This document shows, piece after piece, positions 1 to 48,745 of a stretch of DNA of 64,000 bases. Both the position numbers and the translations under genes were made by a program. The stretch lies in assembly GCF_026151205.1 (NCBI RefSeq), contig NC_087073.1, positions 19,292,658-19,356,657 on the forward strand, written 5' to 3'. The stretch comes from Bolinopsis microptera. Taxonomy: Eukaryota. Position 1 is the first letter of the stretch; every line of letters starts with the position of its first letter. Below the pieces are notes generated by a model that made no database searches, was not told the DNA's origin, and saw only the letters and a list, made by a program, of their open reading frames with translations.

Positions 1-2091
1 GTGAATTTATATCTGGAAGATAACCAATTAAAACAAATTAATAAAGGGTTGTAAAATAATTGGGTTAAATAGGACTACAATATTAATTTAACTCTCATAT
101 CTCATAACTTAGTCTTAATGTCCATTTACCCCAATAATTGAAGTAGTAGCGAATGTGGCGAGGGTGAAGCGATTAAATAGGATGATTCACGAGGTCGCTG
201 TTCCGGTTCTCTCTCTCTCTCAAGGAATAAGAATATAAAGTGGCGATCTGGTCTTTTCATATAGTGGAATGTCAACTAGAACTGAACCATCTTGCATGGT
301 CATCTCGAGGATCTAACATAGTGACGAACGGTTCTCGAGGAAGGAGGGGGGAATCAATCTGAAGTAAGATAATTATAAGTACGGAGCGTTTAAGTAGTGA
401 CAATAATCAGATTGATTAAGTTAAATTAAGGGAAAATCTATCGTAGGAACCTCTTAATGAAGACGTAATAAACTTACGAAGCAATACGACTGGTGGAGCT
501 TAGGTGAGGACAGGCAGAGCAAGTGGGGTGGGTATCACCGTCATATTGCCTGGAAATTAATAACTATTAGAACTAATAATTAGTACACAGGAAATAACTA
601 TAATACTACAATCGTCGACTTTAACGAGTGGAAAAGTGCTATGATTATGAACGATGGATTAAGGTTTACGTAAGATTTTTACCTCAGGAAAGGAACTCCA
701 TAGCCTAATTCTGGAAGGATCTATCGGGAACAGGTAGTACTAGTAGTGCGAGGAATCTGATGAGATATTATGTATATTAACGGCATATTAAGCATTATAC
801 GACGGAAATTGACCTAAGTACGAACTAATCTTTAAGGTCAACCTTTTGATACGAATGCAATCAATGACAATAACATGATCAAGAACTTAATCTAAATTAC
901 GAACCTATAATAGAAATGAGTAACATGTGGAGAGAGAACGGACACAGCAGAACAAGACCCCGGGCCATGATAGGAGACAGGTGAATGCAGAAGGCGAAAG
1001 GCAGCCAGCAGCAGGCGAGCTTCCCTTTTTGTATAGTGCTGGTTGACAGGTCTTTGGGGAGTTGAAGGGGGAGTTGATTCTCATGGCACTCTTGTAACAC
1101 CTCGGCTAGTTCGTCAACACAATAATCAACAATCAATGCTGTTAAAATAATTGTAAGTATTCTTTTAACTATAAGTTCTAATAAATTTGAAACTTTAACA
1201 ATCTTTAAGCCACTGCTTTTCCCACCGGGAACGTCACAATTCCAAATAACTACTAATTTACAACGGCTTAAAATACTAACTACAGCTTCACGCCGTGAGA
1301 CATCTCAATCATACAAACCTTACAACTTTCAGCTTGTTACGCTGACTCCAAATATTTTCTAAATTGATAAAGACTTTAAATTAATCGACCGACTACCCGT
1401 CTCTCAGTACAAATATTTTATAAGATACTAATACAGGCCGTGAGATATTTGCAAACCTGTTCACCCTCAATTCACTATACCCCTACCTAACACCGGGCCA
1501 GACCATTATATATATTAACAATGGTCAAGTATACCCAGCAAAAGTTACTGGCTGGTGGTGGTACTAGAGGTGGTTTAATTTAAACAGACGGCTAGACCTC
1601 GCGCGCGACATTAAGCATGATTTGCACGCGTGGCGCATTCCAATCTTCAAGCAGCCAGCAAGTGACACAATTCAGCCAATCAAAGTACAGGAATCTGCAA
1701 AGTTAAAGTTGCAAACTTTTGAGCGGCCCAAAATGACACTTTTCTGAAGATTTGTAGATAACTCCAAATTTACGTTGTTTTAAATGTTCCCCCTGGGGGA
1801 AAACGTTACTTTTACAAGACGAACATGTTGCAAAAAACCGGAAATCTCTAATTACTCTTTTACTTTAAAAGTTAGGCCCCATCCAGTAAGGGTTTCTGGG
1901 AAAATCACACTTTTTGGTTTAATTCAAAATTTAAATTGACCCAAATAGTGCTCCTGGGGCGCTCCTACTAAATCGCTCGCCCAAATTTTAAGAAAATTCT
2001 TGTGAAAAGGCCCTTTGGGCATGAAAGTGATCTGGATCGGTGTATTTTTGGACGCTGATTCCGAATCACCCCCCATGACGTAGTAGTAGAG

Positions 2092-3055
2092 GCTCTTACG
2101 GGCAAAAAGACGTGTTTTCTGCTACGAGTTTAGAGACCTAACCGCTAATTGGACACAATAGTATGATGTCTAAGGATCGATAATATGTTAAGAAGTATAA
2201 ATTTGGCCTTATTAGTCACGTGCTATACCAATGCGCGTTTTAAACTTTGACAGTCTATTACTCTAAGGCAAATAGAGTAATTATATTCATATTTTGTCAG
2301 CAATAAAATCACATTATTTTCTATTTGGTGTGAAAATATGAGCTAGAACGGACATAATCTCGCTGAGTTATAGCTGTTTGAAATTTATGATGAACGCGCA
2401 GGAGCCAATTGATAACAACTAAATGCTTTTGCGCGTAGTGCGCGTCGAAAATTTGGCAAAAACGCTTGCGGAGTGACAATATTCAAACTTCGATAAACTA
2501 TATGAAGTGGGTACTTCTTTGTAGGTTTACAACCTACCAGGACGCGCGCCGAGTTGGACTCGTCGACGGTGGAAACAGATATATTGGAACAGATATTTTA
2601 CGAGTATCACCCGTTAAGTACTTCTCGGAAAGGAAAAATTTAGGCAAACACGATGTGACTATTTTTGGGTTGATTTAATACAACTGCAAAAAATTATTCA
2701 AACTTCAAGCAAAAAAGTCAAAATTTTTACCACTTTTTTGGATTTTTACCCCCAAAAAAATAGAGGGATTTTTCAAATTTTTATATCATCTTGTGCGGCT
2801 GTGTTTTAGCTATCTCCATGCAAGTTTTGCCGACATGCCAACAAAATTAACTTGTTCAAAATATCAAAAAACATGGTTTTTTTGGCCTATTTTTTGCCCA
2901 AAAATCGGTTTTTTGCAATTTTACCCCCAAAAAGTCGGTCCAATCATCTTTAAACCACTGTTAATCGATTCTACGGTCAAAAATACGTCTAGTAAGGTGT
3001 ATCTGGGGTCCCTAGCGTATCGAGCAGACAATGCCCGTAAGAGCCTCTACTATAG
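2092..3055 (+). mobile_element. Non-autonomous TIR DNA transposon, copy A (about 965 bp)
   Basis: Perfect 18-bp terminal inverted repeats TAGAGGCTCTTACGGGCA at 2092-2109 and TGCCCGTAAGAGCCTCTA at 3038-3055. A second copy lies inverted at 13313-14285, sharing about 40 bp at one end and about 550 bp at the other, with a different internal segment. No long ORF. The small ORFs 2466-2678 and 2793-3206 lie inside it and are not genes. Confidence 0.5.
2519..2627 (+). mobile_element. 109-bp micro-element nested inside TIR transposon copy A, flanked by 8-bp target-site duplication GTACTTCT
   Basis: The flanks are GTACTTCT at 2511-2518 and 2628-2635. The uninterrupted copy B of the host transposon has a single GTACTTCT at the homologous site (read as reverse complement near 13750), so this is a true insertion with a TSD. 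The element begins TTGTAGGTTTACAACCTACC, a perfect 8-bp hairpin, and ends ACCCGTTAA. No TIRs. Confidence 0.55.
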
Positions 3056-3929: not shown

Positions 3930-5100
3930 CCAGGTTCACACTGCACAGTTACCATGTTCCCGACATTGTCTCTAGGTTCACACTGCACAGTCTACATGTT
4001 CCTGACATTGTCTCTAGGTGCGCACTGCACAGTCTCCATATTCCTGACCTCGTCTCCAGGTGCACACTGAACAGTCTCCATGTTCCTGACATTGTCTCTA
4101 GGTTCACACTGCACAGTCTACATGTTCCTGACATTGTCTCTAGGTGCGCACTGCACAGTCTCCATATTCCTGACCTCGTCTCCAGGTGCACACTGCACAG
4201 TCTCCATGTTCCTGACCTCGTCACCAGGTGATACTGCACAGTCTCCATGTTCCTGATCTCGTCTCCAGTTCACACTGCACAGTCTCCATGTTCCTGACCT
4301 AGTCTCCAAGTGCACACTGCACAGTCTCCATGTTCCTGACCTCGTCTCCAGGTTCACACTGCACAGTCTCCATGTTCCTGACCTCGTCTCCAGGTTCACA
4401 CTGCACAGTCTCCATGTTCTTGACCTCGTCTCCAGGTTCACACTGCACAGTCTCCATGTTTCTGACCTAGTCTCCAAGTGCACACTGCACAGTCTCCATG
4501 TTCCTGACCTCGTCTCCAGGTTCACACTGCACAGTCTCCATGTTTCTGACCTAGTCTCCAAGTGCACACTGCACAGTCTCCATGTTCCTGACCTCGTCTC
4601 CAGGTTCACACTGCACAGTCTCCATGTTCCTGACCTCGTCTCCAGGTTCACACTGCACAGTCTCCATGTTCTTGACCTCGTCTCCAGGTTCACACTGCAC
4701 AGTCTCCATGTTTCTGACCTCGTCTCCAGGTTCACACTGCACAGTCTCCATGTTCCTGACCTCGTCTCCAGGTTCACACTGCACAGTCTCCATGTTCATA
4801 ACCTCGTCTCCAGGTTCACACTGCACAGTCGCCATGTTCCTGACCTCGTCTCCAGGTGCACACTGCACAGTCTCCATGTTCCTGACCTCGTCACCAGGTT
4901 CACAATGCACAGTCTCCATGTTCCTGACCTCGTCTCTAGGTTCACACTTCCAAGTCTCCATGTTTATGACCTCGTCTCTAGGTTCACACTGCACAGTCTC
5001 CATGTTCCTGACCTCGTCTCCAGGTGCACACTGCACAGTCTCCATGTTCCTGACCTCGTCACCAGGTGCACACTGCACAATCTCCATGTTCCTGACCGCG
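3930..5100. repeat. 42-bp minisatellite, about 28 tandem units
   Basis: Unit GGTTCACACTGCACAGTCTCCATGTTCCTGACCTCGTCTCCA with point variants. It lacks stops in several frames on both strands, which produces the artefactual ORFs 3949-4248, 4118-4777, 4582-5139 and 4905-5135. On the minus strand it encodes the 14-aa repeat ETVQCEPGDEVRNM. Confidence 0.9.
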
Positions 5101-7403
5101 ATCATGTTCACCGACCATCTCCACCCTGCCAATAGGTAACCAACAGCCTTTTTGTATAGGTCGCTATAGAATAAGGGATTCAGAAAACTGTTGCCTGGGA
5201 TGACCACCAGAGCGAACACCTCAAAGACTGAAGGTGGTACTGGTTGTTTGGAAATGAGCTGGTAATAGACTGTTGCTATGATAAAGGGTATCCATGCTAT
5301 GAGTTGACTTCCGATCATAAGAGCTACTTTTAGTGTTAGAGATCGTGTAATGTCCACCTTTTGTGCTTCTTGTAGAACCGCAACACGTGCTTTACTCTTT
5401 CTATCTTCCAGCAATATTTTGGTGTATGTTACAAGTACTGTGACCAACAGTACTGCCAGAGTTGTGCAGTAGAGAAGTTTGTAGATCTGATAAGATTCCT
5501 GGAGTTTGAAGATGTTGTGGACACATAATCCGGTGTTACCGTAGTAACCTATCTCTTCACTATCGAATATGCTTCCATTTGAAGTCGTGTTTCGGAGCTT
5601 TTCCAGCATGGCGTTTGTGTTAGTTTCCGTAGAAAATGCACCCTCGTACATTATTTTAATTCTAGGTAGGTCGATAGGATTTTTGCTAAAAAATGGATTA
5701 TCATCAAGATGAGTGAAAAATATTTCCGTCCTAAAAATATCCTGTACAGCAGAAATGGATAGGAGCGGAAGAATAGCATGAGCTACATTTAGGAGAAGAC
5801 CTAAAGCGGATCCTAAGACGACCATCCTTGTTTTTATTTCCCAAACCATACTGGTGCAATTCAGCCATCTGATCACACTAACAGATGCGACAGTTAACAA
5901 GGAGCCATGGGAGGATACAGAGAAGAGCACACCAAGACTAGAGCACGATATGCTCGCTCGCCACTTTCTCTCCAACAAGCAGTAGTCGCCTTTGAATCGG
6001 AGCACTGTATCGGCTATAACGATACAGCACAGATATAATCCCATCAGCAGATCGTAGAAGAATATTTGGAGACGGAAAGTTCTGTCAATTCGACCGGTCT
6101 TTGAATCCTTCTGGGAGCGATAGCATTTGTATCCCTCTACAGAGTTGATGATGACGATGAAGAGGCCCATAAAAATTGTGACTACTAGAACCGGTATGGA
6201 TCGAATAAGGAACTTTGAGGAGGACAAACTTCCCAGGTCACATGTCCCACATTCATCACTACCGTCAGCACAATCCTTCACATGATCACATACTTTGTCA
6301 GGATCAACCCACTCTGCTGTTGAGTTTGGGCTGCAATAGAACCTGCCCGGACATCCAATTTCATCTGCCCCATTTTTACAGTCTTGCTTTTCATCACACA
6401 ATGCTGTTACGTGGAAAGACTCTGTTCCAGATCTAAACGGATCTTTCTCACAGTCAAAAACGAAGTCGCTCTCTGACCATGAATCACTAAATACGTGATC
6501 ACAAAATTGTACCCAATTTTCCACCACGAAGTCTGTTTCGTTAGTGCAGTTATATTTGCAATAAGATGACACGAAATTTATTGGATCCTCACGCATTGAT
6601 GACATAAATGACTGGTAGTTATGTCGGTATTGTCTAAGACACGAGTACAAGGGAGACATTTTATCAGGATCCCGAAAAGCCTCCTCACATTTATCAGCGT
6701 CACTCTTATCTGGAATAGTACAATTCAAATTAGTTGACAGGCTACCCAGGCACGATACAGCGGGCAAACAAATGGGAGTGCTGCTGATTACCGGGCAAGA
6801 TATCTTCACAGAATCTTCACAGTAACATTCATCAGACCCATCAATGCAGTCCTGGGTACCATCACATAGACCGTCGAACGAGATGCAGCCTGAGCCGTCA
6901 AAGCAGTAGAAAACTTCAGTCAAGTTATTTTTGCAGCCACACTCATCAGTGAGACACTGGGACACACCATCACAGAGATTCTTATCAGGCAGAGAACAGG
7001 TCCATACTGCATCTTCATCACTTGCAATCTCATCGACATAATCTGTGGGGTCAATCTCTCGGAAATCACTTGCAATCTCATCGACATAATCTGTGGGGTC
7101 AATCCCTCGGACGTGGCCTTGGTAAGGGTCGAAGTTGAACCGACATATTGTGGAACTATTCCCTAGTTCTTTGGCCGGTTTATGATTATCATAATATCCA
7201 GGAAACATGAACAGCATTCGAGAATATTGGAAGCATTTTGTTATTATCTCTGTGTCGCTCATGGGCAAATAGGGATGCTGTCCGTTATACTTCGCAAATT
7301 CAACTGTAAACATTCTCCCCTGAGGACCAGTGCCCGGGACTTGAAATGGAAAGAGCGACAGAAGAAGCAGCAAGAAGACACCCCAAGATGGAATATCCCT
7401 CAT
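4551..7403 (-). CDS. Rhodopsin-like GPCR with N-terminal LDL-receptor class A (LDLa) modules. The ORF runs into the minisatellite, so the 3' end is uncertain and the functional CDS probably ends near 5100-5150
   Basis: A single 950-aa ORF. N-terminal signal peptide MRDIPSWGVFLLLLLSLFPFQVPG. LDLa signatures CFDGSGCISFDGLCDGTQDCIDGSDE and CSPNSTAEWVDPDKVCDHVKDCADGSDECGTC. Seven hydrophobic segments, with an NPxxY motif (NPLFYSDLYKK) in the last helix. After that the ORF continues through about 13 copies of the minisatellite-encoded 14-mer. Confidence 0.7.
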   Translation of the reverse strand: MRDIPSWGVFLLLLLSLFPFQVPGTGPQGRMFTVEFAKYNGQHPYLPMSDTEIITKCFQYSRMLFMFPGYYDNHKPAKELGNSSTICRFNFDPYQGHVRGIDPTDYVDEIASDFREIDPTDYVDEIASDEDAVWTCSLPDKNLCDGVSQCLTDECGCKNNLTEVFYCFDGSGCISFDGLCDGTQDCIDGSDECYCEDSVKISCPVISSTPICLPAVSCLGSLSTNLNCTIPDKSDADKCEEAFRDPDKMSPLYSCLRQYRHNYQSFMSSMREDPINFVSSYCKYNCTNETDFVVENWVQFCDHVFSDSWSESDFVFDCEKDPFRSGTESFHVTALCDEKQDCKNGADEIGCPGRFYCSPNSTAEWVDPDKVCDHVKDCADGSDECGTCDLGSLSSSKFLIRSIPVLVVTIFMGLFIVIINSVEGYKCYRSQKDSKTGRIDRTFRLQIFFYDLLMGLYLCCIVIADTVLRFKGDYCLLERKWRASISCSSLGVLFSVSSHGSLLTVASVSVIRWLNCTSMVWEIKTRMVVLGSALGLLLNVAHAILPLLSISAVQDIFRTEIFFTHLDDNPFFSKNPIDLPRIKIMYEGAFSTETNTNAMLEKLRNTTSNGSIFDSEEIGYYGNTGLCVHNIFKLQESYQIYKLLYCTTLAVLLVTVLVTYTKILLEDRKSKARVAVLQEAQKVDITRSLTLKVALMIGSQLIAWIPFIIATVYYQLISKQPVPPSVFEVFALVVIPGNSFLNPLFYSDLYKKAVGYLLAGWRWSVNMIAVRNMEIVQCAPGDEVRNMETVQCAPGDEVRNMETVQCEPRDEVINMETWKCEPRDEVRNMETVHCEPGDEVRNMETVQCAPGDEVRNMATVQCEPGDEVMNMETVQCEPGDEVRNMETVQCEPGDEVRNMETVQCEPGDEVKNMETVQCEPGDEVRNMETVQCEPGDEVRNMETVQCALGD

Positions 7404-9059: not shown

Positions 9060-9290
9060 GGGTATCCTAGGAAGTTTCTTGAACTTTGAACAGGTACCCC
9101 TCCTCATTTAACCCTCGTCCCTCGATTAAGTTTCATATCATTCGGCTGAGTCGACCGAGGAGATTACATAGATCCAATGGATCCTTAGCTACTCCCTGGC
9201 CTAGACTAGGTGACACTGGGATTCGAACCCTGAACCTTCTGCGCAGAAGGCGGATGCTCTAACCAATAGGCCACCTAGCCCCTACTTGCG
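9060..9290 (-). mobile_element. tRNA-derived SINE, copy 1
   Basis: On the minus strand there is a tRNA-like head with B-box GGTTCGAATCC, and the body shares AGCTAAGGATCC...GAGGGTTAAATGAGGAG with the copy at 36440-36740. The head fails a canonical cloverleaf because it contains the perfect 16-nt palindrome CCTTCTGCGCAGAAGG, so it is called a SINE or pseudo-tRNA rather than a tRNA gene. Confidence 0.5.
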
Positions 9291-10515
9291 CCAAGTTAAA
9301 AAAGAAAAACCCTCACTTAGATGAGCACATTATTGAAAAAGAAGTGCTATATTACTTTAACTCTAAATTTTGGCATAAAATGAGAACGAGAGTGTCCGCG
9401 AACCTTTACCGTAGACGTTATCTTCCGTAACGGTAAACGCGTTTTCTATTCGAATCACGATTTTTCACGGTTGCCGCGACTTATCGCGATTGTCTCCACG
9501 AATATCTCAGCCCAAAAATTACGTTTTTCTATTCCCAGAAAACCTTACCGCCTGCTGGGCTTGCTAGAGGTGATAGATTTCCAACAGCACGTTTGGTGTC
9601 GCGCGTCACGTCAAGTTTACCTTTCGCACGCTGCATTGAGCCTAGTAGTCATGACAACGACATTTCTTTGCAAAGTTTAAAAGCTGTGATCTTTTATTTA
9701 GCCCAAAATCAAACATTTCGGTTTAATTCAGAATCTACGTCGTCCCAAATTTGGCTCCTGGGGAGCCAACTGTAAATTCACGAGACGGAAATTTTGTTGA
9801 AAACCGGAAGGTTCTATTTATTTTACTTTTGGAGATACACCCCAGCTGGTAGGGTTTGCTGGGTAGAATTACAAAATTCAAAAACTGCAGTTTGTAGATG
9901 ATCGATTAGAATTTTGTATTGATGTAAACTGTAAAGTTGAAAGTGTGCAGCTCTAGAGTTTCAATTTGTTAATTTTCGTACGTATCGATTTTAGATGGCT
10001 CGCTGGCTTTTTATTGACCGTTGTTAATGATCTGGCCCGGCGCGCGCTACTTCGTAGCACTTGCCGTCGGGCTACTTCGAAGAAATTTAGACGAGTAACA
10101 TCCGTCAAGCTTTTTATATAGTTAAATTTTTTATTGTTTTATTATGGAGAGATCAGCGCGATTTTGGCTTTATGTTTGCACTATGTTCTGAGACCTAGAC
10201 ATCGTTACTGAAGAGCGATTTTGGCTAAGTAATAAGTATTGATTCACGATGTAATGTCAATCCTTTGCAGCTCAGTGAAACCCAGTAGTGGTTGCGAGAA
10301 GAATTTTTTGATGCGCGGCGCTGCAGCCCAGTAGTGCATCGCGCTACAAGGCTTAATAGTAATACACAGTTCTGCAGAGGTGTTAAAACATTTTCAATAC
10401 TAGCTTCAGTAACATTTTGAATCAGAAACTCTGTTAACATCAGTTCCTAAAAAGTGGAACAATGGAGTTGAAATGACACAACTAAAAACGATATGAAAAA
10501 ATAATGTGTCAATTC

Positions 10516-10612
10516 TTGTAGGTTTACAACCTACCAGGACGCGCGCCGAGTTGGACTCGTCGACGGTCCTATATATATATGGAACAGATATTTTACGAGT
10601 ATCACCCGTTAA
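10516..10612 (+). mobile_element. Second copy (97 bp) of the micro-element, flanked by 8-bp TSD GTCAATTC
   Basis: GTCAATTC at 10508-10515 and 10613-10620. The element termini TTGTAGG...CCCGTTAA are identical to the copy at 2519-2627, with internal indel variation. Confidence 0.55.
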
Positions 10613-11390
10613 GTCAATTCATATAATATCAATCATCATAAGAAAAATTTTGCGCAGCGCGTCGAAGTCCTTCAAGTTATGGGCTAATATTTCTCCAATT
10701 CCTGTCATAAGAAGCAATTTTAATTCGTAGGGTGTTGACTCGACCTTAAAGTAATTTTTAAAAGGAAATAAAAATTTTAGTCGCGCCGTGCATATTTTCG
10801 CTGATCTAAACCGTAAAATCGAGCGCTACTGCAAAATGTGTCATATTATATTTCCCTTACGAATTTTTCAGTGTTACTGTTTCATGTAAGAACATCAGTT
10901 GCTTGTATGTTAGTGTAGTTCCATGGCTTAATTTTATTTGTTACTGTGTTTTTTCACCGATGTGGCGGTCCTGATCTTTATACTATGTTGATTGCCATTT
11001 ATCTTCATGGAATACTACCACGTGCGACATATATTTTCAATTTCACCTTGTTTATTTTTAATTTCTTGCTGCCAAATTGGTCTTCATGGATCCTGTAAGA
11101 TAAGATCTTTATTATCTTGTATATCTTTTTGTTAGTCTCATGAGTCTCATACATAGATTTCTTGTGGTCATCATCTATTTTTCATATGTTTTGTTATAAA
11201 ACCTGCTAACCTTTCTTGGATATCTTCTTGTTAAAGGTGTTTCTGCCTTATTTAGTCAGGATTTAACTTGCAGCTATAAACTTTCGTTTTTACTCCAGTC
11301 CAAGGCGAGATGCACGATCTCTACTGTCATTAGGTATCATTTACAGCTGAGTTTCCTATAAAACTTAAGGAGGCTCTCATTCGTCCAAGT

Positions 11391-12767
11391 TTGAAGAAAC
11401 GTGGCCTTGACGGTGAATTACTATCTAACTATAGGCCTATTAGCAATCTCTCATTCTTGTCAAAAATCATTGAGAAGTGTGTATCTATACAGCTCACCAG
11501 TTATCTTGAGGATAACAACTTGCTTTCTAAAGTTCAGTCCGGCTATAGGAAGTTTCATAGCTGTGAAACTGCAACAACCAGAATCCATAACGACATCTTG
11601 ATAACTATTGACAAGAAAACTAAAGTTGTTCTTTTACTTCTAGATTTGAGTGCTGCCTTTGATACTGTCAATCACCCAAGATTAATCAAGAAGCTAAGAT
11701 CTGCCTATGGCATTACAGGCATTGCTCTTACATGGATCAGGTCCTACTTGGCTAACCGTTCATTTTGTGTTAAAGTCAAGGATTCGTCTTCCTCATCAAC
11801 TGTTCTTGAGATAGGTGTGCCACAAGGTTCAATCCTTGGCCCCCTGCTATTCATATTGTACACCAAAGATCTTGAGAACATTGCAAGTATGCATGGGTGC
11901 TGTATTCATTTGTATGCTGATGACACCCAGCTGTATTTCACTCTTGATTCTGATGACCCATCACAGCTAGAGCACAATATGGAACACTGTATGTCTGATA
12001 TCAAGAAATGGATGACAAACAATTTCCTTCAACTGAATTCTTCTAAGACTGAAGTCATCGTTATATCCTCTAAATTTGACTCAAAAAATATTCCAGCCTC
12101 TCTACAGATTGTTAAGGATCAAGAGCCACATGTTGTTAGTGGAACTGTGAAGAGTCTTGGGCTGTATTTGGACAGTTATCTTTCAATGAGTGATCAGATT
12201 ACGTCAGTGGTTCAAGCATGTAATATTCAGATCAGAAATTTGTGGTTTATTGCATCAAAACTGTCTTTTAACCTTAAGATTCAGCTTGTTCATGCTCTAG
12301 TACTCTCTAGAATTGATTATTGCAATAGCGTATATTTTGGACTGAGCTCTTATGATTTAAGTCGTTTACAGAAGGTGCAAAATTCTGCTGTAAGATTTAT
12401 TTTCGGGAGAGGAAGAAAGGCACACACTACTCCACTACTTAAGAAAGTTCATTTTCTACCAGTTAGATTTAGAATAGATTTTAAGATTGCCCTACTTGCC
12501 TACAAGTGTTTAAATAATATAGCTCCTCCTTACTTAAAAGAGTTGATATCTCCTAGGCAGCAAAGTTTTAAAAATGTACGTCTTGATAATGATTATTTTT
12601 ACCTTAGTTTTCCGCCCTCTCCTAACTATGTAAACACAGAGAAAGCTTTTAGTCACTGTGCAGTTAAAGTATTTAATTCCCTGCCATACGACATAAGATC
12701 AGCTGAGTCAGTTACATCTTTCAAGACCAAACTTAAAACATACTTCTTTTCTCTAGCATTTGATTGA
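11391..12767 (+). mobile_element. Non-LTR retrotransposon (LINE) reverse-transcriptase fragment, 5' truncated
   Basis: 458-aa ORF with RT motifs LLLLDLSAAFDTVNH, GVPQGSILGPLLF and LYADDTQL (YADD). No endonuclease domain upstream. Confidence 0.85.
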
Positions 12768-13312
12768 TTTTGCATTTACATAGGTAAAATGAACTTGTCA
12801 TGTCTAATTTTCAATTAAACTAAGCTCAGTTAATGTAAGAGCCGCTTTAGAAAGCACTGGAGTTTATCTCCAGGATTAAATTATATCGAGTTATATGATT
12901 TAGCTATAAGGCGGTTTATAAAAGTTGTATTTATTATTATAAGGGTTAAATTTAAATTATTTAACCTTTTGGTGCTGTATCAAAATAACATTAATTTATT
13001 ATTATTATTATTATAACAAGCTGACAGAATCGTCTTCCGAGAAAGTTTGACTTAATTGCAATGAGTATAACACCTCATCTTGTAATTTTTAGTTCCCTAT
13101 TATCTATTTGTATTCTATCTATTCAATTTCAATGAGTCGAGTCCATATTGAAAAATAGATATTTGAGGTCAATCACTTTGGTAACCCTTTTAAACTTTTT
13201 CTTGGGTCGCAATATCCTTATTATACATATTTAATGGCACATGATACCCTTAAGTCATGACTATGTCTACCAAGCTTGGGCACCTACAATAGTGTGTTTA
13301 TCGAATTTGTTC

Positions 13313-14285
13313 TAGAAGCTCTTACAGGCATATTCTGCCCGATACGCGAGGGACTTCAGATACACCTTTCAATTCTAGACTTTTTTTTGACCGCAGAATC
13401 GATTTAAAGTCGTTTTGAAATGATAAGTCTGAGTTTCCTCGGGTAAAAATTCCTCGGGTAAAATCCGCATTTTTGGGCCAAAAATAGGCCATAAAACCAT
13501 GTTTTTTGAACTTTTGAGCAAGTTAATTTTGTTGGCACATCAGCAAAATTTGCATGAAGATAGCTGAAATACAGTCGCCGCGCAGATGATGGTATAAAAA
13601 CAAAACAAACCCCTTAATTTTTCCCCAGGTAAAAATCCAAAAAGGTGGTCAAAATGTGCCCTTTTCAAGCTTAAAGTTTGAATAATTTTCTGCAGTTGTA
13701 TTAAATCAACCCAAAAATAATTACATGGTGTTTGCCTAAATTTTTCCTTTCCGAGAAGTACCCACTTCATATACTTTATCGAAGTTTGAATATTGTCACC
13801 CCGTAAGCGTTTTTGCCAAATTTTAAGAGGGTTTATTATATATTTTAATTTATATATTTTAAATTGATATTTAATAAATGATTAAAAGAAGAAAAGTTTC
13901 CATACTGAAGCCTTTAGGTCCAAAAATATACCCATTATGCTCACTTAAAAACAACTCTAAATCAGTAGGCTGTCACTCTTTTAATTTTAGTAAAACAAAA
14001 TTTTGTATCGTGATGGAGACCGGTGTCCATACAAAACATTTACTAGGTTGCCGTTTGGTGTGAGCAATAGCGAACAGCACGCACACTCCTTTGCCCCGTC
14101 AACCTATATCTAATCTATTTAAAGAGTGACAACCATACTACACATTGAATTAGGATTCCTTTAAATATCAAATTGATTTAGTGTAAACTTGTTTACTCTG
14201 TAATAAATGGCATAAAATTGAAATTTTTGTTTAACTGAAATTTTTGTTTAGCTGATAGCAGAAAACACGTCTTTTTGCCCGTAAG
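13313..14285 (-). mobile_element. TIR DNA transposon copy B, inverted relative to copy A
   Basis: Ends TAGAAGCTCTTACAGGCA (13313-13330) and TGCCCGTAAGAGCCTCTA (14268-14285). The region 13440-13810 is homologous, as reverse complement, to 2440-2960. Confidence 0.45.
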
Positions 14286-15179
14286 AGCCTCTATAAGGGC
14301 TTTAAAACCGGTTTATTCAATACAATATAATATAAAAATAACCTGCAATAATATCGTAACATTCATGTCGATACTAACTGAAATAATATAATCTGTAGGT
14401 AAAATAATAATACTGTCACATAATTAAGATATATGATATAATTAAAAAAAATATCTCTTTTATTTCCAAACTAATTCTCACACCAAGTTTTAATTCACAC
14501 ACCAAACTTTAAATTTCATCAAAATACAAAAGTCCTAATATGTCTCTTATCTCAATGCAATATCTCTGATTCTCTAGTTAAAAAGTCAGGGGTGCAGCTG
14601 TTGTACTTCAATTAAAACAATTGATCACGCTGGATCATGATGCTATTTTACCAAAATCAGCTACCTGTTTAGAATTGATTGCTGAGCTCTGTGAAGACTG
14701 TGTGTAGTGAGTGTGTGTGTGTCTGTAGTGAGCGTTGGCCGGCTTTTTTATTCTTGTTGTTGTGCAGTAACATCGATATTACTCATTATAGAGGTGCACC
14801 TTTGACTGAATCTCAAGCTAAGTTGAGACTTGAGACATAGCCATCCTCTTCGATGAAAATATGTGCACAGTGTCTTTTCCACAGCCAATTTTGTAACATC
14901 GATTAGCATGTATTACCTGTCGATTTTTGATCCCTTAAGGGGTCCTTGAACACATATAATTACGTAATCACTTATTGGACAATTTTTAACCCCCCTCCAT
15001 AATCAGTCTTCACATAGCTATTGTGTCAAAATTACATTTGGAAACCCCTTATTTGGAAACCCCCTCAACTGATATGTGAACGACCCATAAACATCCTCAG
15101 AATGGCTTGGAGGGACTTAAATGCTTATTTTGTAGCCTCTGCAGTCACACAAATCTGCAATTTTTGAGGGTATAAAATA

Positions 15180-23404: not shown

Positions 23405-26400
23405 TTACTCCGCAAGTCCAATTTTAACATCACTTGTAGAAATAGTTCCCCCGATGAGACCTTTAGCCGTGTTGAAAAGGTTAAGAGGTGTTGATCCATC
23501 AGTGATGAGGGTAGACTTGAGCCCTAATGCTTCCAACATTTTTACCTGATAATGATATATCACATTGAGGAAGTTATAAGACTGTTACATACTGTTTAGT
23601 GCATACTGAATCAAATTAATAACTCTGCACTTCTCGACGAACTTGCAGAACAGCAGGCCCAACCCTTGAGCTTAAGACGAATAATGTATGACATTTATTC
23701 AGCTATAAGTTACCTGGTTGTCTTTTCCAGAGGTTGCAATAGCAGCAATATTTAATGGTCCCAATTCTTCCACCATACGTTGGAACCTAGTCGACTCTAT
23801 ATCTGCCATCTTCTGTTTCTTGGATATCTCGAGCTCGTTGGTGGACTGAAGGTACTCCAGCTCACTTTTACGGGCTGATGTTATTCTGTGCAGCTCAGCA
23901 CGCTGAAGAATTATACAAGTTAAAAATAGCATTCGCCATATTTACTCCAGTAGCAGGGAGGAGTTGAGTGTGCACTTCGATGTACAGAGTTTTTTGCTGC
24001 TGAATCGGGTTAAATAGGTCATTGGTAACTCAAAAAATCGAGGGCCGCCTGTTGTGTCGCTAGTCCCAACCCTGTGGAGCCACGCCCATATTTCATATCA
24101 GGTGCGTATATGGGAAATATGTATCTCAGCTTCTGAAGGTCTTAGAGACTTAAACTTGAGTTTAAAATGACCGCAATACACATGTTTATGTTGGTACTAT
24201 GAAGGTCATGAAAGCCCAAAATGCTTATTTTTGGAAAAAATTCAGAAAAACCAATTTTCACTTGGGCGCGAGTAAAAAATCTACACTAGAAATTGAGTGA
24301 AAATCGAGTAAGCAGTTCAGTGTCTACCACATTTCTAAACACAGGGTCCTCTGTTAGGTCATTCTTAATCAGAATTGATAAAGTAAGCAAATTTTATTAG
24401 TAGTTTCAACCCTGTGGAGCCACGCCCATATTTCATATTATGTGTGAATATCGGAAATTTGTATCTCAGCTTCTGAAGGTCTTAGAGACTCAAAGGTGGG
24501 CTTAAAATGACCGCAATGTACATGTTTATATTGGCACTATGAGGGTCATGAAGGCCCAGAATGCTTATTTTTTGGAAAAATTCAGTAAAACCGATTTTCA
24601 AGTTTGCGACACTTGGGCATGAGTAAAAATCGACGCTTAGAAGTTAAGTGAAATCGAGTATGAAGTTCAGTGTCTGCAACGTTTCTAAACACAGGATCCT
24701 TTGTAAGGTCATTCTGAATCAGAATTGATAAGGTACAAAAATTCTATGAGTAGTTTCAACCCTAGGGAGCAAAACTCCTAAATTACCCCCAGGCGCAAAT
24801 ATATGACTTTTCTATCTCGGCTTCTGAACGTTGTAGGGGCCTCTCTTTGAGCTCAAACTAACCACGATGGCCACATTTATATACCAACTGTAAAGAAACA
24901 TAGGGTTTATACTTTATAGTGCTTAGTTTTTAAAAACTCATTTAAAAACTGTTTTAACCTTCATGCATCATAAAATAGTAACATCAAACATGTACTTAAT
25001 TATGGTATCTCGGGCTAAAAAAGTCTTATAGACATTTCCAGCACAGTAAAACGTTCAACATGAACACATTCGGATAACATTTATGGAGAAGCACATAGGT
25101 ACCACCTAACTTTAATTTTGGTATAACTGCGAAAATACTCAGTTTCAGAAGCTCCTTCCAGCTATCTTAGGCTGCCATCAGCTCCCTCTCTGGGACTCTC
25201 TCCAGTACTGCTTGGCTATTATGGCTAATCAACTTGAATCCAACCTCATGTAGTAGAATCTACTTCTAGTTACCTTCTGCTAAGTCCATGTCAACTCTAC
25301 CCAGCTACCACCACCAATATGTTATAATTTTAGATCTTTCTAGCAACTTCTGATATGAGTGCTACCTCTTCCTCTATCCAGCTACTATACCACCAGATGG
25401 CAGAAACCACCAATTCCAGCTGTCTCCACCTACTTCGGCTACCTCTATTTAGCTACCACCAAGGTTCCTCCAACTTCTGCTATTTCTAGCAACTTTAGCT
25501 TAGGGTAGTGGGCCTGGGCTACTTCTTGCCCTGTCTAGCAACCATCAGCAACATTTTATTCTGGCGTTTAGAGGTTGCTAGAAACAGCAAATTTCCTCTT
25601 CCTTAATGAGCTAGAAATTGTTGGATGCAGCAGAGGTTATACAGCACTCATATCAGAGGTTGCTAGAAAGATCTAAAATTATAACATATTGGTGGTGGTA
25701 GCTGGGTAGAGTTGACATGGACTTAGCAGAAGGTAACTAGAAGTAGATTCTACTACATGAGGTTGGATTCAAGTTGATTAGCCATAATAGCCAAGCAGTA
25801 CTGGAGAGAGTCCCAGAGAGGGAGCTGATGGCAGCCTAAGATAGCTGGAAGGAGCTTCTGAAACTGAGTATTTTCGCAGTTATACCAAAATTAAAGTTAG
25901 GTGGTACCTATGTGCTTCTCCATAAATGTTATCCGAATGTGTTCATGTTGAACGTTTTACTGTGCTGGAAATGTCTATAAGACTTTTTTAGCCCGAGATA
26001 CCATAATTAAGTACATGTTTGATGTTACTATTTTATGATGCATGAAGGTTAAAACAGTTTTTAAATGAGTTTTTAAAAACTAAGCACTATAGAGTATAGA
26101 CCCTATGTTTCTTTACAGTTGGTATATAAATGTGGCCATCGTAGTTAGTTTGAGCTCAAAGAGAGGCCCCTACAACGTTCAGAAGCCGAGATAGAAAAGT
26201 CATATATTTGCGCCTGGGGGTAATTTAGGAGTTTTGCTCCCTAGGGTTGAAACTACTCATAGAATTTTTGTACCTTATCAATTCTGATTCAGAATGACCT
26301 TACAAAGGATCCTGTGTTTAGAAACGTTGCAGACACTGAACTTCATACTCGATTTCACTTAACTTCTAAGCGTCGATTTTTACTCACGCCCAAGTGTCGC

Positions 26401-29400
26401 AAACTTGAAAATCGGTTTTACTGAATTTTTCCAAAAAATAAGCATTCTGGGCCTTCATGACCCTCATAGTGCCAATATAAACATGTACATTGCGGTCATT
26501 TTAAGCCCACCTTTGAGTCTCTAAGACCTTCAGAAGCTGAGATACAAATTTCCGATATTCACACATAATATGAAATATGGGCGTGGCTCCACAGGGTTGA
26601 AACTACTAATAAAATTTGCTTACTTTATCAATTCTGATTAATAATGACCTAACAGAGGACCCTGTGTTTAGAAATGTGGTAGACACTGAACTGCTTACTC
26701 GATTTTCACTCAATTTCTAGTGTAGATTTTTTACTCGCGCCCAAGTGAAAATTGGTTTTTCTGAATTTTTTCCAAAAATAAGCATTTTGGGCTTTCATGA
26801 CCTTCATAGTACCAACATAAACATGTGTATTGCGGTCATTTTAAACTCAAGTTTAAGTCTCTAAGACCTTCAGAAGCTGAGATACATATTTCCCATATAC
26901 GCACCTGATATGAAATATGGGCGTGGCTCCACAGGGTTGGGACTAGCGACACAACAGGCGGCCCTCGATTTTTTGAGTTACCAATGACCTATTTAACCCG
27001 ATTCAGCAGCAAAAAACTCTGTACATCGAAGTGCACACTCAACTCCTCCCTGCTACTGGAGTAATTCAATTCAAATACATACATCCATTGATTTAAGGGA
27101 TACTTGAAGGATATGTTCCTATATATCCTTTATTTCGATGCTACATATTTGTTGGGTAAAACTGTAAGATAAACAGTTAGGATTTAAACTTACAGCGTTG
27201 ATGTTTTGGGCTTCAGCTGCAAGTTTGGCCTGATCCACCGCAGCTTCGCCCTCTATTTTCATTGACTCAGCCCGGGACTGAGCCTCTGCTATTGCTTGTC
27301 CGGTACTCTCAACGGCGGCTGAGCTGTTTAGAGGAAACCATTATTGTTAGGATAATCATGGTGATACAGTATCAACTATCAATTAGTATTGAAAAGTAGA
27401 TACATTGCTAGTAAATGTAAATGATGGTAATCTTTGTTTCAGCCCTACATTGCTTGAAGTTCAAGTAGTTCCAAGCGAGATTTCTCTTCTTCAGCCTCAT
27501 CACTAAGTTTCTGTCGTTCTAATCTACCCATCGCCTCCTGGTCCAGTCTTTCTGCTTCATGCCTGAAATATGCCTACTATATACCACAACTAAAACCTAG
27601 ACAATAACCTAAAACCAGTATTAGAGTAAGAGAAAAGGTGGTTAAAGGTTTCCCGTATTCATGATAATTTAATAATCTTAACCAATGCACTACACATAGA
27701 GATTTATTATACGATATTCGTATACTTAATCTTAGTCGATGGCTTTGTAGTTTGTATATTTGGGTAGTAGAATGAAGAGTTCGGAGAAGGACTTCGAAGT
27801 GAGGAAAGCTAAGGCATGGGGAGCGTGTCACCAGATGAAGCTTGTATGGAAGTCGGATATGCGTAGAGATCTCAAGATACGACTGTTCCTGGCTACAGTC
27901 GAGTCCATCCTTCTATATGGCTCTGAAACATGGACTGTCAGCCAGACCCTCACAAAACGTATTGATGGATGTTATACGAGAATGCTGAGGATGGCACTTA
28001 ACATTGACTGGAAAGAGCGGCAGACTAACGCCAAGGTGTATGGACACCTCATCAGAGCATCTGATAAGATAGCTGCACGGAGGATGAGACTCGCAGGCCA
28101 TTTAGCCAGACATGAAGAACTATTGAGTCATCAACTTCTCTTCTGGGAACCCCTTCAAGGACATCGTTGAAGGGGAAGACCACACCTCACATTTATTGAC
28201 ATCCTTCGGAAGTACACGGGGCTTGACGACAGCAAGGAGACTAACAAACTCATGATAGACAGATTTGGAAGAAAACTATCTCTGTTCGGACATTGAAGCC
28301 GCCCTAAGTCGAGTAAGTCGATACTTAATCTATACTTTAACCACTTTTTAACGAAAATTGCACTGCTAAGGAATACAGATAAATAACCTGAAGCACCAAC
28401 CTAGCTGTGGCTTCCTGGGAGTTGGTTGTTATCTCAATGGCAAGTTGTACCGACTTCATGAGAGAGTCCCTTGTTCGCTGATCTACCGGCTCTACCGACT
28501 GTATGTCAATATTTGTGATCCTCAGACGGTTTGCAGGGAAGTGGAGGGAGTCATGGCTACCCAGGATGGATTCGTTTATTATTCGTGCAGAATGCTGAAA
28601 ATAACGTGGCGTTACCCTTACGCTTGGGGAAATAGAATATCTCAAAAATTTGAAACTTCACGATCAACTGCCTTGGAGAGATGAAATCCTGCTATTGATA
28701 GATGAGCACGATTCAACAGTTTACGGTATCAAAAAATTTACTTCGCCCTATCAAAATCATTCACCCTATTAAAACCAGAGTGCATTGTTCATACTACTCA
28801 CCTTATGAAAGTCATCAAAAGGTACAGCTGCAACAGCTCCTCTAATCTTGGAAGCTATGGATTTACAAGCGTCTCCGACAAAGTCCGGCACTGAGAACAG
28901 TGATTCCGAGTCACATTTGTAAGTAGGGGAATCACTTGCTGGTAACTCAAATTGCCTGTATGAGGATGAGTACAAAAGATTGTGGAGTACAGATTCGCCG
29001 TTTAGTAATGAGAGTGGTTTGAATAAATGCCATGCGTATTCAATATTATCAATCTATGACATTAATTGTACAACAATCGGGTATTCCAGATCAATTATCA
29101 TATTGAAAAAGTCATTTCACAGATATAATCTATGTTGTATCATTGATCATCCAGTGGGATAGTTGTTTGATTACTTAAAATAATCTGACTCCTACCAATT
29201 GTAACAGAGCTGCAATGAAAGTCTGGCATGATCAGAAGTCTCCACAGTAAATACATCCGTCATAAAGTCTGGTCCGAGTGAGAGGTCGAGGGTCCTGACA
29301 ACATTGGGTCGTTTTGGCTGGCCTCCAGATAAACTGAGTTGCGTGAAATGTTCGTCCGGTCCCAGCATGACTAAGTCAGGTCCAAATATCACCCTGAAAT

Positions 29401-32400
29401 GTACAGTTTAGTTGCATCTGATGGCTTAATCTAATATCCTTAATACAATACAGAAATACCACTCACTTCTGAGTTCTGAGAGGCCGTGAATTAAAATGTG
29501 GGTACAAAATTAAATTAAATTATGTACCTTAATTCCCAAAAATTTGGGCGACCAAAAATTTGAGCGGGCCTCTCGCCCAAATTTGTTGCAGACCAAATTT
29601 ATTGCATAAATCTTTTCCGTCTGCTAAATTTTTTGCTAACCAAACTTTTGGCATTTGGCCTGTGGCCCTGAAATCTATAGAAAGATGGCTTTTTCTTCAT
29701 ATCCAAGTGAAATAATATTTGAAATTTTAGTTTTCTAATCTGTCATTCATGGCTTGACCAAGTAAAAGGTTTATATTTTAAATGAATAGAAATAACTGGA
29801 ATAGCTAACAGCTACTAATAAAACAAATGGCTAGAGGTACAGATAGCTAGAGATTTAAACAAGATCTGCAAATGGATTATCATCCACCGTAAAGTCTGAT
29901 CTACAAGCATCAGTTATACCCGATTTCTCAAAGCCTTTCCTTATGTCATCTGGCCTCCCTTTTAAATAAACAAAAAGTTCGTTGATCCAACGAGCGTGTA
30001 CATCACGGATCACTGTCAAGCGGGTATCAATTTTCACATTGTCTGATGAAACTCCTCCATTGAGCTGACACACTATGTTTTTCGCGTACCAATCTTCGTA
30101 CTTATTGTGCATGACTTTCTTAGCCAGTCCATTGATAGATATGTCCAGGGGCTAAAGAGAGACTAAATATCACTATTGTATATCTATCATTTTGTACTGT
30201 GCCATCATCACTGTATTTTTTAGTAGTTACTGGGTAACTGGGCAGATCGTAAATTTCATAATGTGAAACAACTCAGACTACCACCTACATGCTTAAAATT
30301 GAAAGCAAAATGACTGGAATAATAAGGAATAATAATGAACTAAGGCAAATATCTAACTAAAATTTTAGTGGAAAATCGTTCATTTTTCGAAGAATTTGTG
30401 CCCAAATTTTCGGTCGCCCAAATGAGTTCAAATTTTCTGCCCAAATTTTTCGGGCTCAAATAAATTGTGCTCAATATAATGGCACACAAATTTTTGGGAA
30501 CTGTTTGTTTGTTTGTTTGTTTATAGAACCCGTCCCCAATCTCGTATCGGAAAATGACTAAACTCAGGTCTGAGTGTGAATACGGGTGGTACCTGCAAGA
30601 GTGTTCATTAAGCATTTAGAGTTCTGTAAAACTGCAGTTACAATTGTGCTAGAGTATTTTTAGTATATACGATTGGTATCAGATATGTATCCCTACATGC
30701 TTCCAAAATTTGTAAAGCCGTAGTACATACATATCACATTACACCGGAGCCTACACAGTGCAATCTCCTCCAGTCGATCTGCGCCGCATATGTTTATATA
30801 ATTATAAGCGCGCGGCGCAGACTGGAGGAAACCACACTCTGCAAGTTCGATCCAGTGCAATGCTACATGTACGTACTACGGCTTCATCTCCAACTTTCTG
30901 CACAATGTACTGGAATGTTTTGAAAGAAAAGAAAGAACAAAAAAAAGTGATATATATAAACAAAATCAGCGATTTAATGTTAGCCTTAGGAGGGTAACTT
31001 TAATTCCCTGGTTTCTAAAATCAGCTTTTTAAAAAAAAATAATAAAGTATGTAACGTCGATACCAAACCGATTATTGAGCGATAATAACTGAGTAGTTGA
31101 TTCCTGGGTTGCGGAGTCATTCAGATGTTCCAGTTTTCGAATGTGATTCTTGTTCAGTTCTTGACCAGAAGTGTCTAATGAAGTAAGTCAGACAAGCAAA
31201 CTCTTCCTTAAATGCTGATATAAGTCGTCTCAATCCCAGAAATTATGAAGATGACCCAGTGTAAAAGTGCAGAAATCGGCCGAAAATAACAAAGACTAAA
31301 AACAGTTAAAAAGTGACAGGATTCAAACACAAGGAAAATTAATAACTTAGAGCGTAATAAGGAATATCTCCAAACGGAGTTTTCTGAGAGGGTGAGAGGT
31401 TCTTTAATTAGAGCTAAATTTTAAGATAATCATTTTTGGGAACTAAGGTACACCGAATAATTAAATTTATAATTAATAACATTCGTCGCGTCGCGCGAAA
31501 TGTATTACTCAAAATGAGATAGGATTAGCGCGTTCCGTAAAGTTATTTGGTGCGCGTTAAATTAGGCTTAGAACGAGCAAGCAAGGCCAGGATGTATATT
31601 TCATCGAGTCAGAAATGTGCAATTTACATGTGCGTGTGTGTGTCACACAATCCCAAGCTTCTCTTTCGCTAGTGATTATTACCCACAGAAACATGAAAAC
31701 AGCACTGTGTGAGTGGACACCATGGCATGGTGACCATGATGATGACGATAAGGACAGATCATTATCGTGCACTTGTACTTGCTTGACTATACTGTGGAGT
31801 GAGTGTGGCTAGCTCCACATTATCGCTATTGTTCAACGTTGTGATTCTTGTCGACTGGAGAGAGGCAATGCGCGCTGCCGATGTAAGAGAGAATGTACCA
31901 TCTTGTCGTATAAGATATCAGTTTCATAACGGGGCGGGTATCACTGCGTGGTTACGTGTATACACGTGACACAACACGTGACCAGATCTACGAGTGTCTT
32001 ATTGAATATCATGCTGGCTGCTGCATATTATCATCCTCATTCTGGGCTCCATAATCATTGTTAGAGTGATCCTGTTCCCTTTCTTAGTCGCTGTGTTCTG
32101 CTGTGTAGTGTACTGAATTGTCATGAGTTGTTCAGTTTATCACCTGTTTTCTGTAGAGACATTAGTCATTACACACAGTTTGATATTCGTTTCATTATCA
32201 AAATAAGGAAATGAACTTAAATCAACTTCCGTCTACATCAGGAGGACAGAGAAAACCACACGGTGCGTACTTTGTAAAGTGTACCGTTAAACATACACTG
32301 ATTTATGTCTGTACTACTTACTCCTTGGAAGAAGGATCAAGAGGGCTTGCTTTGATCTCGATACATTTCTACGTAGTTACTTTTACTTTGGGCGATCATC

Positions 32401-44747: not shown

Positions 44748-45266
44748 TTTCTTCCATTGTTCTTCTAAAGGAGAGTTTCCAAGCTCCTGATCGTTGGTAT
44801 AGTATTTATTTAGTATTTATATGTAGTATATAGTATTTATAGTATAGCAAATACACACTGATTACTAATTTTATAGATTAAAGATTTACGAAACTGAAAG
44901 TTGTTAATTTCCACTCCTACTAATTCCTAAGTATTATTGTTCCTAAGTTTTGTTAAGTTATCAACCTGTAAATTTAACCTATTAATATGACTATCTGTAT
45001 GACTTTCTTGAGCCCAGTAGATAGATTAGATTAGATTAGATTAGATTAGATTAGATTAGATTAAGAATAATGACATAAACATCATCACTAGTTTTAAACA
45101 TTCTTTCTGATTTCCTCATTATCAGAACTGTGAACATTTCACAGCCTTCGTCATTAAAAAACAAACAAATTCTATAACTAACATAATTGTCATAATTTAT
45201 TTACATATAAAAAAGTTTAAAAAGTTAAAAACCGTTAATTTAAAAAATAAATAAATAAAAACAAAT

Positions 45267-46672: not shown

Positions 46673-46937
46673 ATAATTTGAGGACCCCCAGTGGGAACTA
46701 ATGCCTCGGTAAATGTAACGACCATTACAGGTTGTATGTCAATGTAAATGGTTGTTGCACGATAAAGTTATCTTAAAGACATCCTAAGGACTATCAGACA
46801 TCGGTTTTTAAAGCAGTTTACTCCCATCTATCACCTAAAGATTATCAGACATCACTTATCGTTATCCTCCGGAGTGCTACAAAGGTACTGTAATCATTAA
46901 CTAAATTTCGAACAGTAGCATCTTTTTGTGATAAACT

Positions 46938-48590: not shown

Positions 48591-48745
48591 AATACTGCTG
48601 AATACTGACATAACACTCCTACCATCAGTTTTATTTTTACAGTACGACATCCAGACAAATACAACCTGCTTTTATTCTGTTTTTTAGTTTAAACACAACT
48701 TTACAACTTTTATTCATTCCATTGTGAATTAATAAGATTCACAAG

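Follow-up and report, generated by a model that had tools for sequence, protein, structure and literature searches.

A probable miniature cut-and-paste transposon whose ends share a TT-plus-stem-loop architecture rather than an inverted sequence

What kind of mobile element is about 100 bp long, duplicates 8 bp of its target and shows no obvious terminal inverted repeats (TIRs)? Two copies of such an element, hereafter micro, raise this question in a 64-kb stretch of Bolinopsis microptera DNA (contig NC_087073.1, positions 19,292,658 to 19,356,657; the window). We conclude, with a probability of roughly 0.8, that micro is a tiny class II DNA transposon of the cut-and-paste kind, non-coding and non-autonomous, in other words a MITE (a transposable element of the miniature inverted-repeat type), moved in trans. 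Judged from its sequence, it is best read as a MITE whose ends diverged yet keep a common architecture, a terminal TT followed by a stem-loop.

The 5' 20-mer, the 3' 22-mer and the central 24-mer of micro each occur exactly twice in the window, with a chance expectation of 0. The copies, their target-site duplications (TSDs), the empty site and the transposon that hosts copy 1 are as follows.

2519-2617, plus strand: micro copy 1, 99 bp, nested in the host TIR element at 2087-3049 (nhmmer E = 1.8e-29)
10516-10612, plus strand: micro copy 2, 97 bp, differing from copy 1 in the central AT-rich segment only
2511-2518, plus strand: left TSD of copy 1, GTACTTCT, an 8/8 match to 2618-2625, single at the empty site
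2618-2625, plus strand: right TSD of copy 1, GTACTTCT
10508-10515, plus strand: left TSD of copy 2, GTCAATTC
10613-10620, plus strand: right TSD of copy 2, GTCAATTC
13754-13761, minus strand: empty target site for copy 1, a single GTACTTCT in the paralogous host copy B
2087-3049, plus strand: copy A of the host non-autonomous TIR element, ~960 bp, with an 18-bp TIR TAGAGGCTCTTACGGGCA, carrying micro copy 1
13313-14293, minus strand: paralogous copy B of the host element, without micro

The flanking duplication of both window copies matches in the 8-bp register only (8/8); lengths of 6, 7, 9, 10 and 11 bp gave 0-3 matches. The flanks of copy 1 and copy 2 are unrelated to each other. On the minus strand, 13734-13781 carries the joined flanks of copy 1 with a single GTACTTCT (1 mismatch in 48), and in the same paralogous copy the left flank (2448-2518) aligns to 13824-13754 at 96% and the right flank (2618-3049) to 13761-13313 at 80%. 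For copy 2 the window showed no empty site. Outside the central AT-rich segment the two copies do not differ and are therefore young; on their sequence they look like a young subfamily of micro. The preliminary description of this DNA had claimed a mobile element with shared termini that inserts with an 8-bp target duplication, and both points hold; it had placed the end of copy 1 at 2627, and the true end is 2617.

Copies also occur in other sequence sources. We scanned the micro 5' 20-mer against JGI metagenome contigs and found 5 additional copies on the North Sea contigs Ga0115560/64/65 (loci L001-L005). The 3' 19-mer, scanned against a collection of bacterial and archaeal genomes, matched at four places in a single metagenome-assembled genome (MAG), 'Candidatus Endobugula sp.' (CBDDBR01), whose contigs hold at least 6 further copies; in all, at least 11 copies lie outside the window, with 75-93% identity to the window copies. 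Micro copies are 70-117 bp long, no open reading frame (ORF) is possible in them, and their coding capacity is nil. The TSD is 8/8 at five independent loci (the window copies w1 and w2, L003, L012b and the inner copy of L010), 7/8 at L001 and L012a and 6/8 at L004; one locus, L002, has a TSD of 9 bp (8/9), and three copies, old or rearranged, have no recognisable TSD. One L010 copy is nested in another micro copy; the family consensus GCCGAGTTGGACTCG contains its TSD AGTTGGAC a single time, giving a second independent empty site. The two empty sites set the boundaries and show that micro is no fragment from inside something longer; nor do its flanking duplications vary widely in length, being 8 bp and occasionally 9 bp. 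At L013 2650-2981, two micro 5' halves face outward round an inverted-repeat core in a palindromic layout of ~330 bp, either a rearrangement or a long-read assembly artefact.

The matches in the MAG do not mean that micro is bacterial. The CBDDBR01 loci (L010-L013; contigs CBDDBR010000011.1, 2.36 Mb, and CBDDBR010000004.1, 6.66 kb) are mis-binned animal DNA, because they contain almost no ORFs, a reverse transcriptase (RT) ORF of long interspersed nuclear element (LINE) type, TTAGGG-like tracts and other repeats common to the window. This GTDB representative MAG thus appears to include mis-binned host DNA, possibly at megabase scale.

The transposon that carries copy 1, present as copies A (2087-3049) and B (13313-14293, minus strand), has the TIR (TA)GAGGCTCTTACGGGCA. 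Since TA borders either copy at its two ends, it may be a non-autonomous element of Tc1/mariner type (with a TA TSD). The surrounding repeat in L012, GATTCCGAATCACCCCCCATGAC...GGGTTAAAATGC, runs uninterrupted.

Micro has relatives. Fam2, famB and famC are sister MITE families of ~60-110 bp with 8/9-bp TSDs, and mutual insertions are seen among them; fam2 came to light when pairs of the form N8-TTG...GTNAA-N8 were sought at spacings of up to 12 kb. Sites of these families in the window are listed below; others lie at L012 4299-4395, with several in L013 and L011.

10014-10108, plus strand: sister MITE fam2, 95 bp, TIR TTGACCGTTGTTA / reverse complement TTGACGGATGTTA, perfect 8-bp TSD GCTTTTTA at 10006-10013 and 10109-10116
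1490-1528, minus strand: remnant of a fam2-type 5' end whose 7-bp stem is intact (TT GACCATT ... AATGGTC)
10312-10349, minus strand: famC 5' end (TTGTAGCGCGATGCACTACTGGG...), which shares TTGTAG...CTAC with the micro 5' end

The fam2 TIR is 13 bp long (11/13 matching), and the fam2 site in the window lies 400 bp from micro copy 2. A second fam2 copy, in L010, has the TSD GATCGGCG, and fam2 TSDs are 8/8 at three loci. FamB (TTGCTCTAACCAGAGC...CACATGGTTATGTGAA) has TSDs of 8/8, 9/9 and 7/9, and famC has a perfect 8-bp TSD (GAAAGTAC) and one of 9 bp (8/9). In L012 a famB element is inserted within a micro copy, and micro is found in the famC 5' region twice, at L002 and at L010. None of the four families was found in ERZ25073835, a related ctenophore-like assembly (L007-L009, 69 kb).

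Aligned to each other, micro and fam2 run collinearly for most of their length and have a GCGCGC box in common. Their conservation is strongest in the 3' ~35 nt (...ACGAGTATCACCCGTTAA in micro, ...ACGAGTAACATCCGTCAA in fam2), so that the micro 3' end is the homologue of one arm of the fam2 TIR. The micro 5' end TTGTAGGTTTACAACCTACCAGG matches the famC 5' end, with the common frame TTGTAG-9 nt-CTAC-YRGG. On these similarities, micro looks like a recombinant of sister MITEs, its 5' tip resembling famC and its body and 3' end resembling fam2. One element at L013 2989-3100 joins a C-type 5' end to a fam2-type 3' end; the end types are therefore interchangeable. The ends are marked by a common architecture rather than a common inverted sequence, which is why the family appears TIR-less. 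It had been described as having no TIRs, which is right for sequence identity within micro alone and wrong in that its 3' end is homologous to the 13-bp TIR of fam2. It had also been placed outside the MITE description: its collinearity with the TIR-bearing fam2 makes it a MITE, whereas its diverged ends with their TT-plus-stem-loop architecture are indeed unusual.

Within micro copy 1 three palindromes were located.

2521-2537, plus strand: 5' terminal stem-loop GTAGGTT-TAC-AACCTAC, beginning at nt 3 of the element
2600-2614, plus strand: 3' subterminal imperfect palindrome ACGAGT-ATC-ACCCGT, then TAA, homologous to the fam2 TIR arm
2550-2568, plus strand: internal hairpin CGAGT-TGG-ACTCG at 2550-2562, overlapping the palindrome CGTCGACG, with the stem conserved and the loop variable between copies

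The internal hairpin is as first reported. The 5' hairpin had been given as a perfect 8-bp one, TGTAGGTT tac AACCTACA; the sequence reads AACCTACC, and the stem is 7 bp (GTAGGTT/AACCTAC). Read from the tip inward, all eight end types of the four families start with TT and continue with a palindrome able to form a stem-loop from nt 3, so that the common architecture is 5'-TT-[stem-loop]...[stem-loop]-AA-3'. Six of the eight open with TTG and the others with TTA or TTC (examples of end-type sequences are TTGACSGWTGTTA, TTGTAGCGCGATGCAC and TTGATTCACGATGTCAA).

micro 5' end: TT GTAGGTT TAC AACCTAC
fam2 5' end: TT GACCATT GTT AATGGTC
fam2 3' end: TT GACGGAT GTT ACTCGTC
micro 3' end: TTA ACGGGT GAT ACTCGT
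famB 5' end: TT GCTCT AACC AGAGC
famB 3' end: TT CACCT AACC AGGTG, with the variant CACAT...ATGTG
famC 5' end: TT GTAG CGCGATGCA CTAC
famC 3' end: TT GATT CACGATGTC AATC

The stems change and remain complementary. In famB and famC the loops are conserved between the two ends and three stem positions differ, compensatorily; between the 5' ends of micro and fam2, four stem positions differ, again compensatorily. To quantify pairing, we aligned the ends from the tip without gaps, counted paired cells and compared the counts with 500 shuffles.

Micro and fam2 ends: 91.8% of cells paired, shuffled mean 66.5%, reached by 0/500 shuffles; 5/7 pairs changed on both sides
FamB ends: 91.4% of cells paired, shuffled mean 64.3%, reached by 0/500 shuffles; 4/5 pairs changed on both sides
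FamC ends: 87.5% of cells paired, shuffled mean 58.9%, reached by 0/500 shuffles; 3/4 pairs changed on both sides

With the micro and fam2 end set, slid controls gave 18-45% paired. Perfect 7-bp stems with a 3-nt loop number just 16 in 56.6 kb of the window, the two micro copies included. The pairing suggests that the ends are read at least partly as structure, or that they are palindromic sites for a dimeric binding domain.

How would such an element move? An autonomous element outside the window would supply the transposase in trans; the enzyme would recognise each end, cut the target with an 8-nt (sometimes 9-nt) stagger and join the element, and gap repair would leave the 8/9-bp duplication. 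The end mark would be the terminal TT with a short stem-loop-forming palindrome from nt 3, more than an inverted sequence. A two-end, double-strand reaction of DDE type with a fixed stagger is proposed on three grounds: a duplication that stays at 8 (occasionally 9) bp, sharp boundaries and a rotationally symmetric architecture. We infer a DDE transposase from TSD length and symmetry alone; the hAT-, P- or Mutator-like candidates named in the preliminary description lie in the right neighbourhood. As no partner was found, the superfamily, too, could only be inferred: by analogy with Muta1 of Aedes we tentatively favour a Mutator-like enzyme, at somewhat less than even odds.

Several points weigh against reading micro as a MITE of this kind. 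The search for a partner covered, by Pfam, all window ORFs of at least 90 aa and the ORFs of the MAG loci, and was extended by scans for TT-hairpin pairs and a fuzzy map of all eight end types; in the 165 kb searched, neither an autonomous partner nor a DNA transposase ORF turned up, nor did paired ends separated by more than 1 kb. Three long candidates (43687-46999, 45547-48369 and 12076-13954) were rejected, as they span LINE ORFs or are without end motifs, and their number is about the chance level. The two ends of micro itself agree poorly, in TT..AA plus a gapped match of ~8/14 only. Mutator-like elements (MULEs) mostly carry TIRs of ~100-200 bp with subterminal repeats, end in other termini than those seen here and, in the autonomous copy, encode a MULE/Transposase_mut DDE transposase; TIRs of that length have no room in elements of just ~100 bp, which is why they are absent. 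The palindrome of Muta1 is 10 bp at the very tip, compared with 17 bp from nt 3 here. Within the micro family alone covariation is weak, with one GC<->AT pair and 86/500 shuffles reaching the observed score. Across families the independent events behind it are few, namely a single comparison of the 5' with the 3' end in each family and one of micro with fam2, and the counting tool scored G-T as a pair. The sample is small, about 25 ends and about 20 TSDs.

We then considered other explanations. A MITE of another known superfamily with 8-bp TSDs (hAT, Merlin, P, Zisupton or Novosib), mobilised in trans by the same DDE cut-and-paste mechanism, is somewhat unlikely. Termini of hAT elements are YARNG and their target pattern is nTnnnnAn, and P termini are CA, whereas all eight end types here start with TT; the hAT target pattern is absent, with T at position 2 in 5/15 TSDs and A at position 7 in 4/15, and the 9-bp TSDs of micro, famB and famC are atypical for hAT. 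Autonomous hAT elements encode a transposase with a BED finger and a hAT dimerisation domain, and no such partner turned up in the 165 kb searched. The dominant TSD of exactly 8 bp, however, is the value of hAT, Zisupton and Merlin (PMC10045372, PMC8101967, PMC12730594). Merlin elements have an 8-9-bp TSD and TIRs of at least 24 bp with a conserved terminal 5'-GG, and one Merlin family, in Symbiodinium, is reported to have highly imperfect TIRs (PMC8101967). The elements studied here agree with Merlin in TSD length and differ in that every end starts with TT rather than GG.

An undescribed lineage of eukaryotic DNA transposons, whose ends (TT and stem-loop) are read by structure and not by sequence and which nevertheless makes 8/9-bp duplications, seems improbable to us. 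The stems differ between ends and between families and stay complementary, with loops and the TT tip conserved; a sequence-specific binding domain would be expected to require similar ends, and the termini fit no superfamily signature that we checked. Fixed 8/9-bp TSDs are, however, a hallmark of DDE transposases acting on double-stranded DNA, whereas IS200/IS605 and Helitrons, the single-strand transposons known to depend on hairpins, leave no TSD. For cruciform extrusion, stems of 4-7 bp are on the short side; the palindromes may be mere binding sites of a dimeric protein, and fam2 retains an ordinary sequence TIR. Muta1, moreover, is a conventional DDE element with a palindromic tip (PMC5225508).

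Retroposition of micro via RNA by a LINE endonuclease and reverse transcriptase, as a SINE-like (short interspersed nuclear element-like) or other retroposed element, is very improbable. LINE fragments bearing RT and endonuclease ORFs are indeed present in the window, at least four of them; on the minus strand, micro ends in a stem-loop plus AA, loosely like stringent-type LINE/SINE 3' tails, and its 3' palindrome folds better on that strand through a G-T pair. Against these stand a TSD fixed at 8-9 bp, the lack of a poly(A) or microsatellite tail and of a 5'-truncated series, the architectural symmetry of the ends and the sister fam2 with its true TIR; no LINE in the window carries either terminus, with up to 3 mismatches allowed. 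That micro is not mobile at all, its copies being chance similarities or parts of a segmental duplication, has the small copy number in the window and nothing else in its favour, and can be dismissed given the chance expectation of 0 matches, the unrelated flanks, the precise empty site and the additional copies, no fewer than 11, that lie at unrelated loci with TSDs of their own in three other sequence sources.

Other candidate identities were rejected. Rfam gave no match over micro at the gathering threshold and at E <= 10, and a tRNA search found no head (nor was there a 5S or 7SL-like one); these two results rule out a ribozyme, SINE or small nuclear RNA origin. That micro is neither a SINE nor a Helitron had been recognised from the start, and is borne out by the absence of an RNA polymerase III head and of a tail and by the fixed TSD of 8-9 bp; the 8-bp TSD and the TTG...TAA termini also rule out a Helitron. 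An IS200/IS605-type element was rejected because a TSD is made, although subterminal hairpins are present at both ends. Nor is micro an introner whose splice sites come from the TSD: no GT...AG placement removes the element plus one TSD on either strand, and copy 1 lies inside another transposon. For piggyBac or Kolobok (terminal TTAA), the empty site puts the TTAA inside the element and the duplication is 8 bp. In IMG/VR, the matches to a fam2 19-mer (L014-L017) were set aside as one chance match, located at a gene end in four homologous low-GC phages; three other IMG/VR scans gave no matches.

The other contents of the window mark it as animal DNA, probably from a ctenophore. A 950-aa receptor ORF with LDLa, 7TM and Sushi domains lies at 4551-7403 on the minus strand, and several ORFs encode LINE RT and endonuclease. 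Two window proteins have their sole named relatives in the ctenophore Mnemiopsis leidyi, at 35-50% identity, with ENA and JGI metagenome proteins at 81-99%. An exact-protein look-up gave no record of the window ORF that was tried, and the relatives of that ORF at 99% are on contigs of 1.6-2.1 kb. Further features are listed below.

3930-5097: 42-bp tandem repeat, 28 units, 91%, within the C-terminal part of the receptor ORF (4551-7403, minus strand), whose tandemly duplicated paralogues (70-81% aa) are in ENA assembly ERZ25073835 (L007-L009)
9208-9280, minus strand: tRNA-like sequence, Rfam 31.5 bits against a gathering score of 29, not called by ARAGORN, with a 79%-similar counterpart of the region kept in L007 beside the receptor gene related to that of the window; possibly a pseudogene of a tRNA or the head of a SINE
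23942-25363 / 25643-27064: perfect (100%) 1422-bp inverted repeat with a 279-bp spacer and a ~340-bp tandem repeat inside each arm, which could be a foldback element or an assembly artefact
~28300-40760, minus strand: exons of a major vault protein gene (Vault, Vault_2/3/4, MVP_shoulder), interrupted by LINE fragments
46938-50308, plus strand: LINE-like unit whose first ORF has AlkB-like 2OG-Fe(II) oxygenase and GDSL lipase/esterase domains, followed by an endonuclease ORF; 99%-identical fragments are in ENA and JGI metagenomes and relatives in Mnemiopsis
56752-63082: 171-bp satellite array, 37 units, 99% identity, with an inverted partial unit at 63890-64000

As a MITE family micro is ordinary, and useful for annotating its repeat-rich source genome. 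Less ordinary is that end sequences differ within the element and between sister families, and that the TT tip and a compensated stem-loop are retained throughout. If these stem-loops reflect substrate recognition, they would explain the continued mobility of 'TIR-less' cut-and-paste elements, and software that finds transposable elements by sequence TIRs would miss a concrete class of them. An element of 100 bp also offers a simple experimental system for structure-based end recognition in a eukaryotic transposon. Should the ends be read by structure in a lineage of its own, which we regard as a long shot, eukaryotes would have, with TSD formation, an equivalent of the ends of IS200/IS605 and of integron attC sites. 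The significance stays modest unless the ends are confirmed to be recognised by structure and the partner's transposase turns out to be unusual.

Among known systems, micro has the generic traits of MITEs: it is short (under ~600 bp) and non-coding, with a TSD of fixed length and dispersed copies of similar size. Our literature searches brought up no relevant earlier account of a ctenophore MITE of such type. Micro resembles hAT-derived MITEs in being short and non-coding, in its mostly 8-bp TSD and short imperfect TIRs, and in short subterminal motifs in both orientations (here CGAGT/ACTCG); it is unlike hAT in the termini, targets and 9-bp TSDs described above. With IS200/IS605-type elements, their palindrome-associated MITEs and integron attC it shares hairpin-defined ends, little sequence conservation and differing hairpins. 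IS200/IS605 and attC, however, are prokaryotic, move in single-stranded form by means of HUH or tyrosine enzymes and leave no TSD, whereas the TSD here is constant at 8/9 bp and the ends have two-fold symmetry. IS200/IS605 elements insert 3' of a fixed tetra- or pentanucleotide without target duplication, unlike the duplicated targets here, which are unrelated in sequence. Helitrons and Helentrons likewise have no TSD; they insert between A-T or T-T and have a 5' TC and a 3' CTRR with a 3' hairpin.

Clean TSDs despite strongly diverged ends are also found in the imperfect-TIR Merlin of Symbiodinium and in the non-TIR MULEs of Arabidopsis, which, unlike micro, are long and often coding; to our knowledge, no terminal stem-loop covariation has been described for either. 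The closest analogue, as far as the comparison reaches, is Muta1, a Mutator-like element of Aedes aegypti. It has 8- or 9-bp TSDs without target preference, TIRs of 145 bp with subterminal tandem repeats, a terminal palindromic motif of 10 bp with a 4-bp stem, and abundant short non-autonomous derivatives whose internal sequence is unrelated (PMC5225508). No MULE transposase is tied to the elements studied here, and they differ from Muta1 in a sequence TIR of 0-13 bp and in palindromes of 13-19 bp that begin at nt 3, after the TT. Despite its long TIRs, Muta1 resembles them in combining 8/9-bp TSDs in one family, many short non-autonomous members unrelated in their interior, no target sequence preference and a palindromic end motif.

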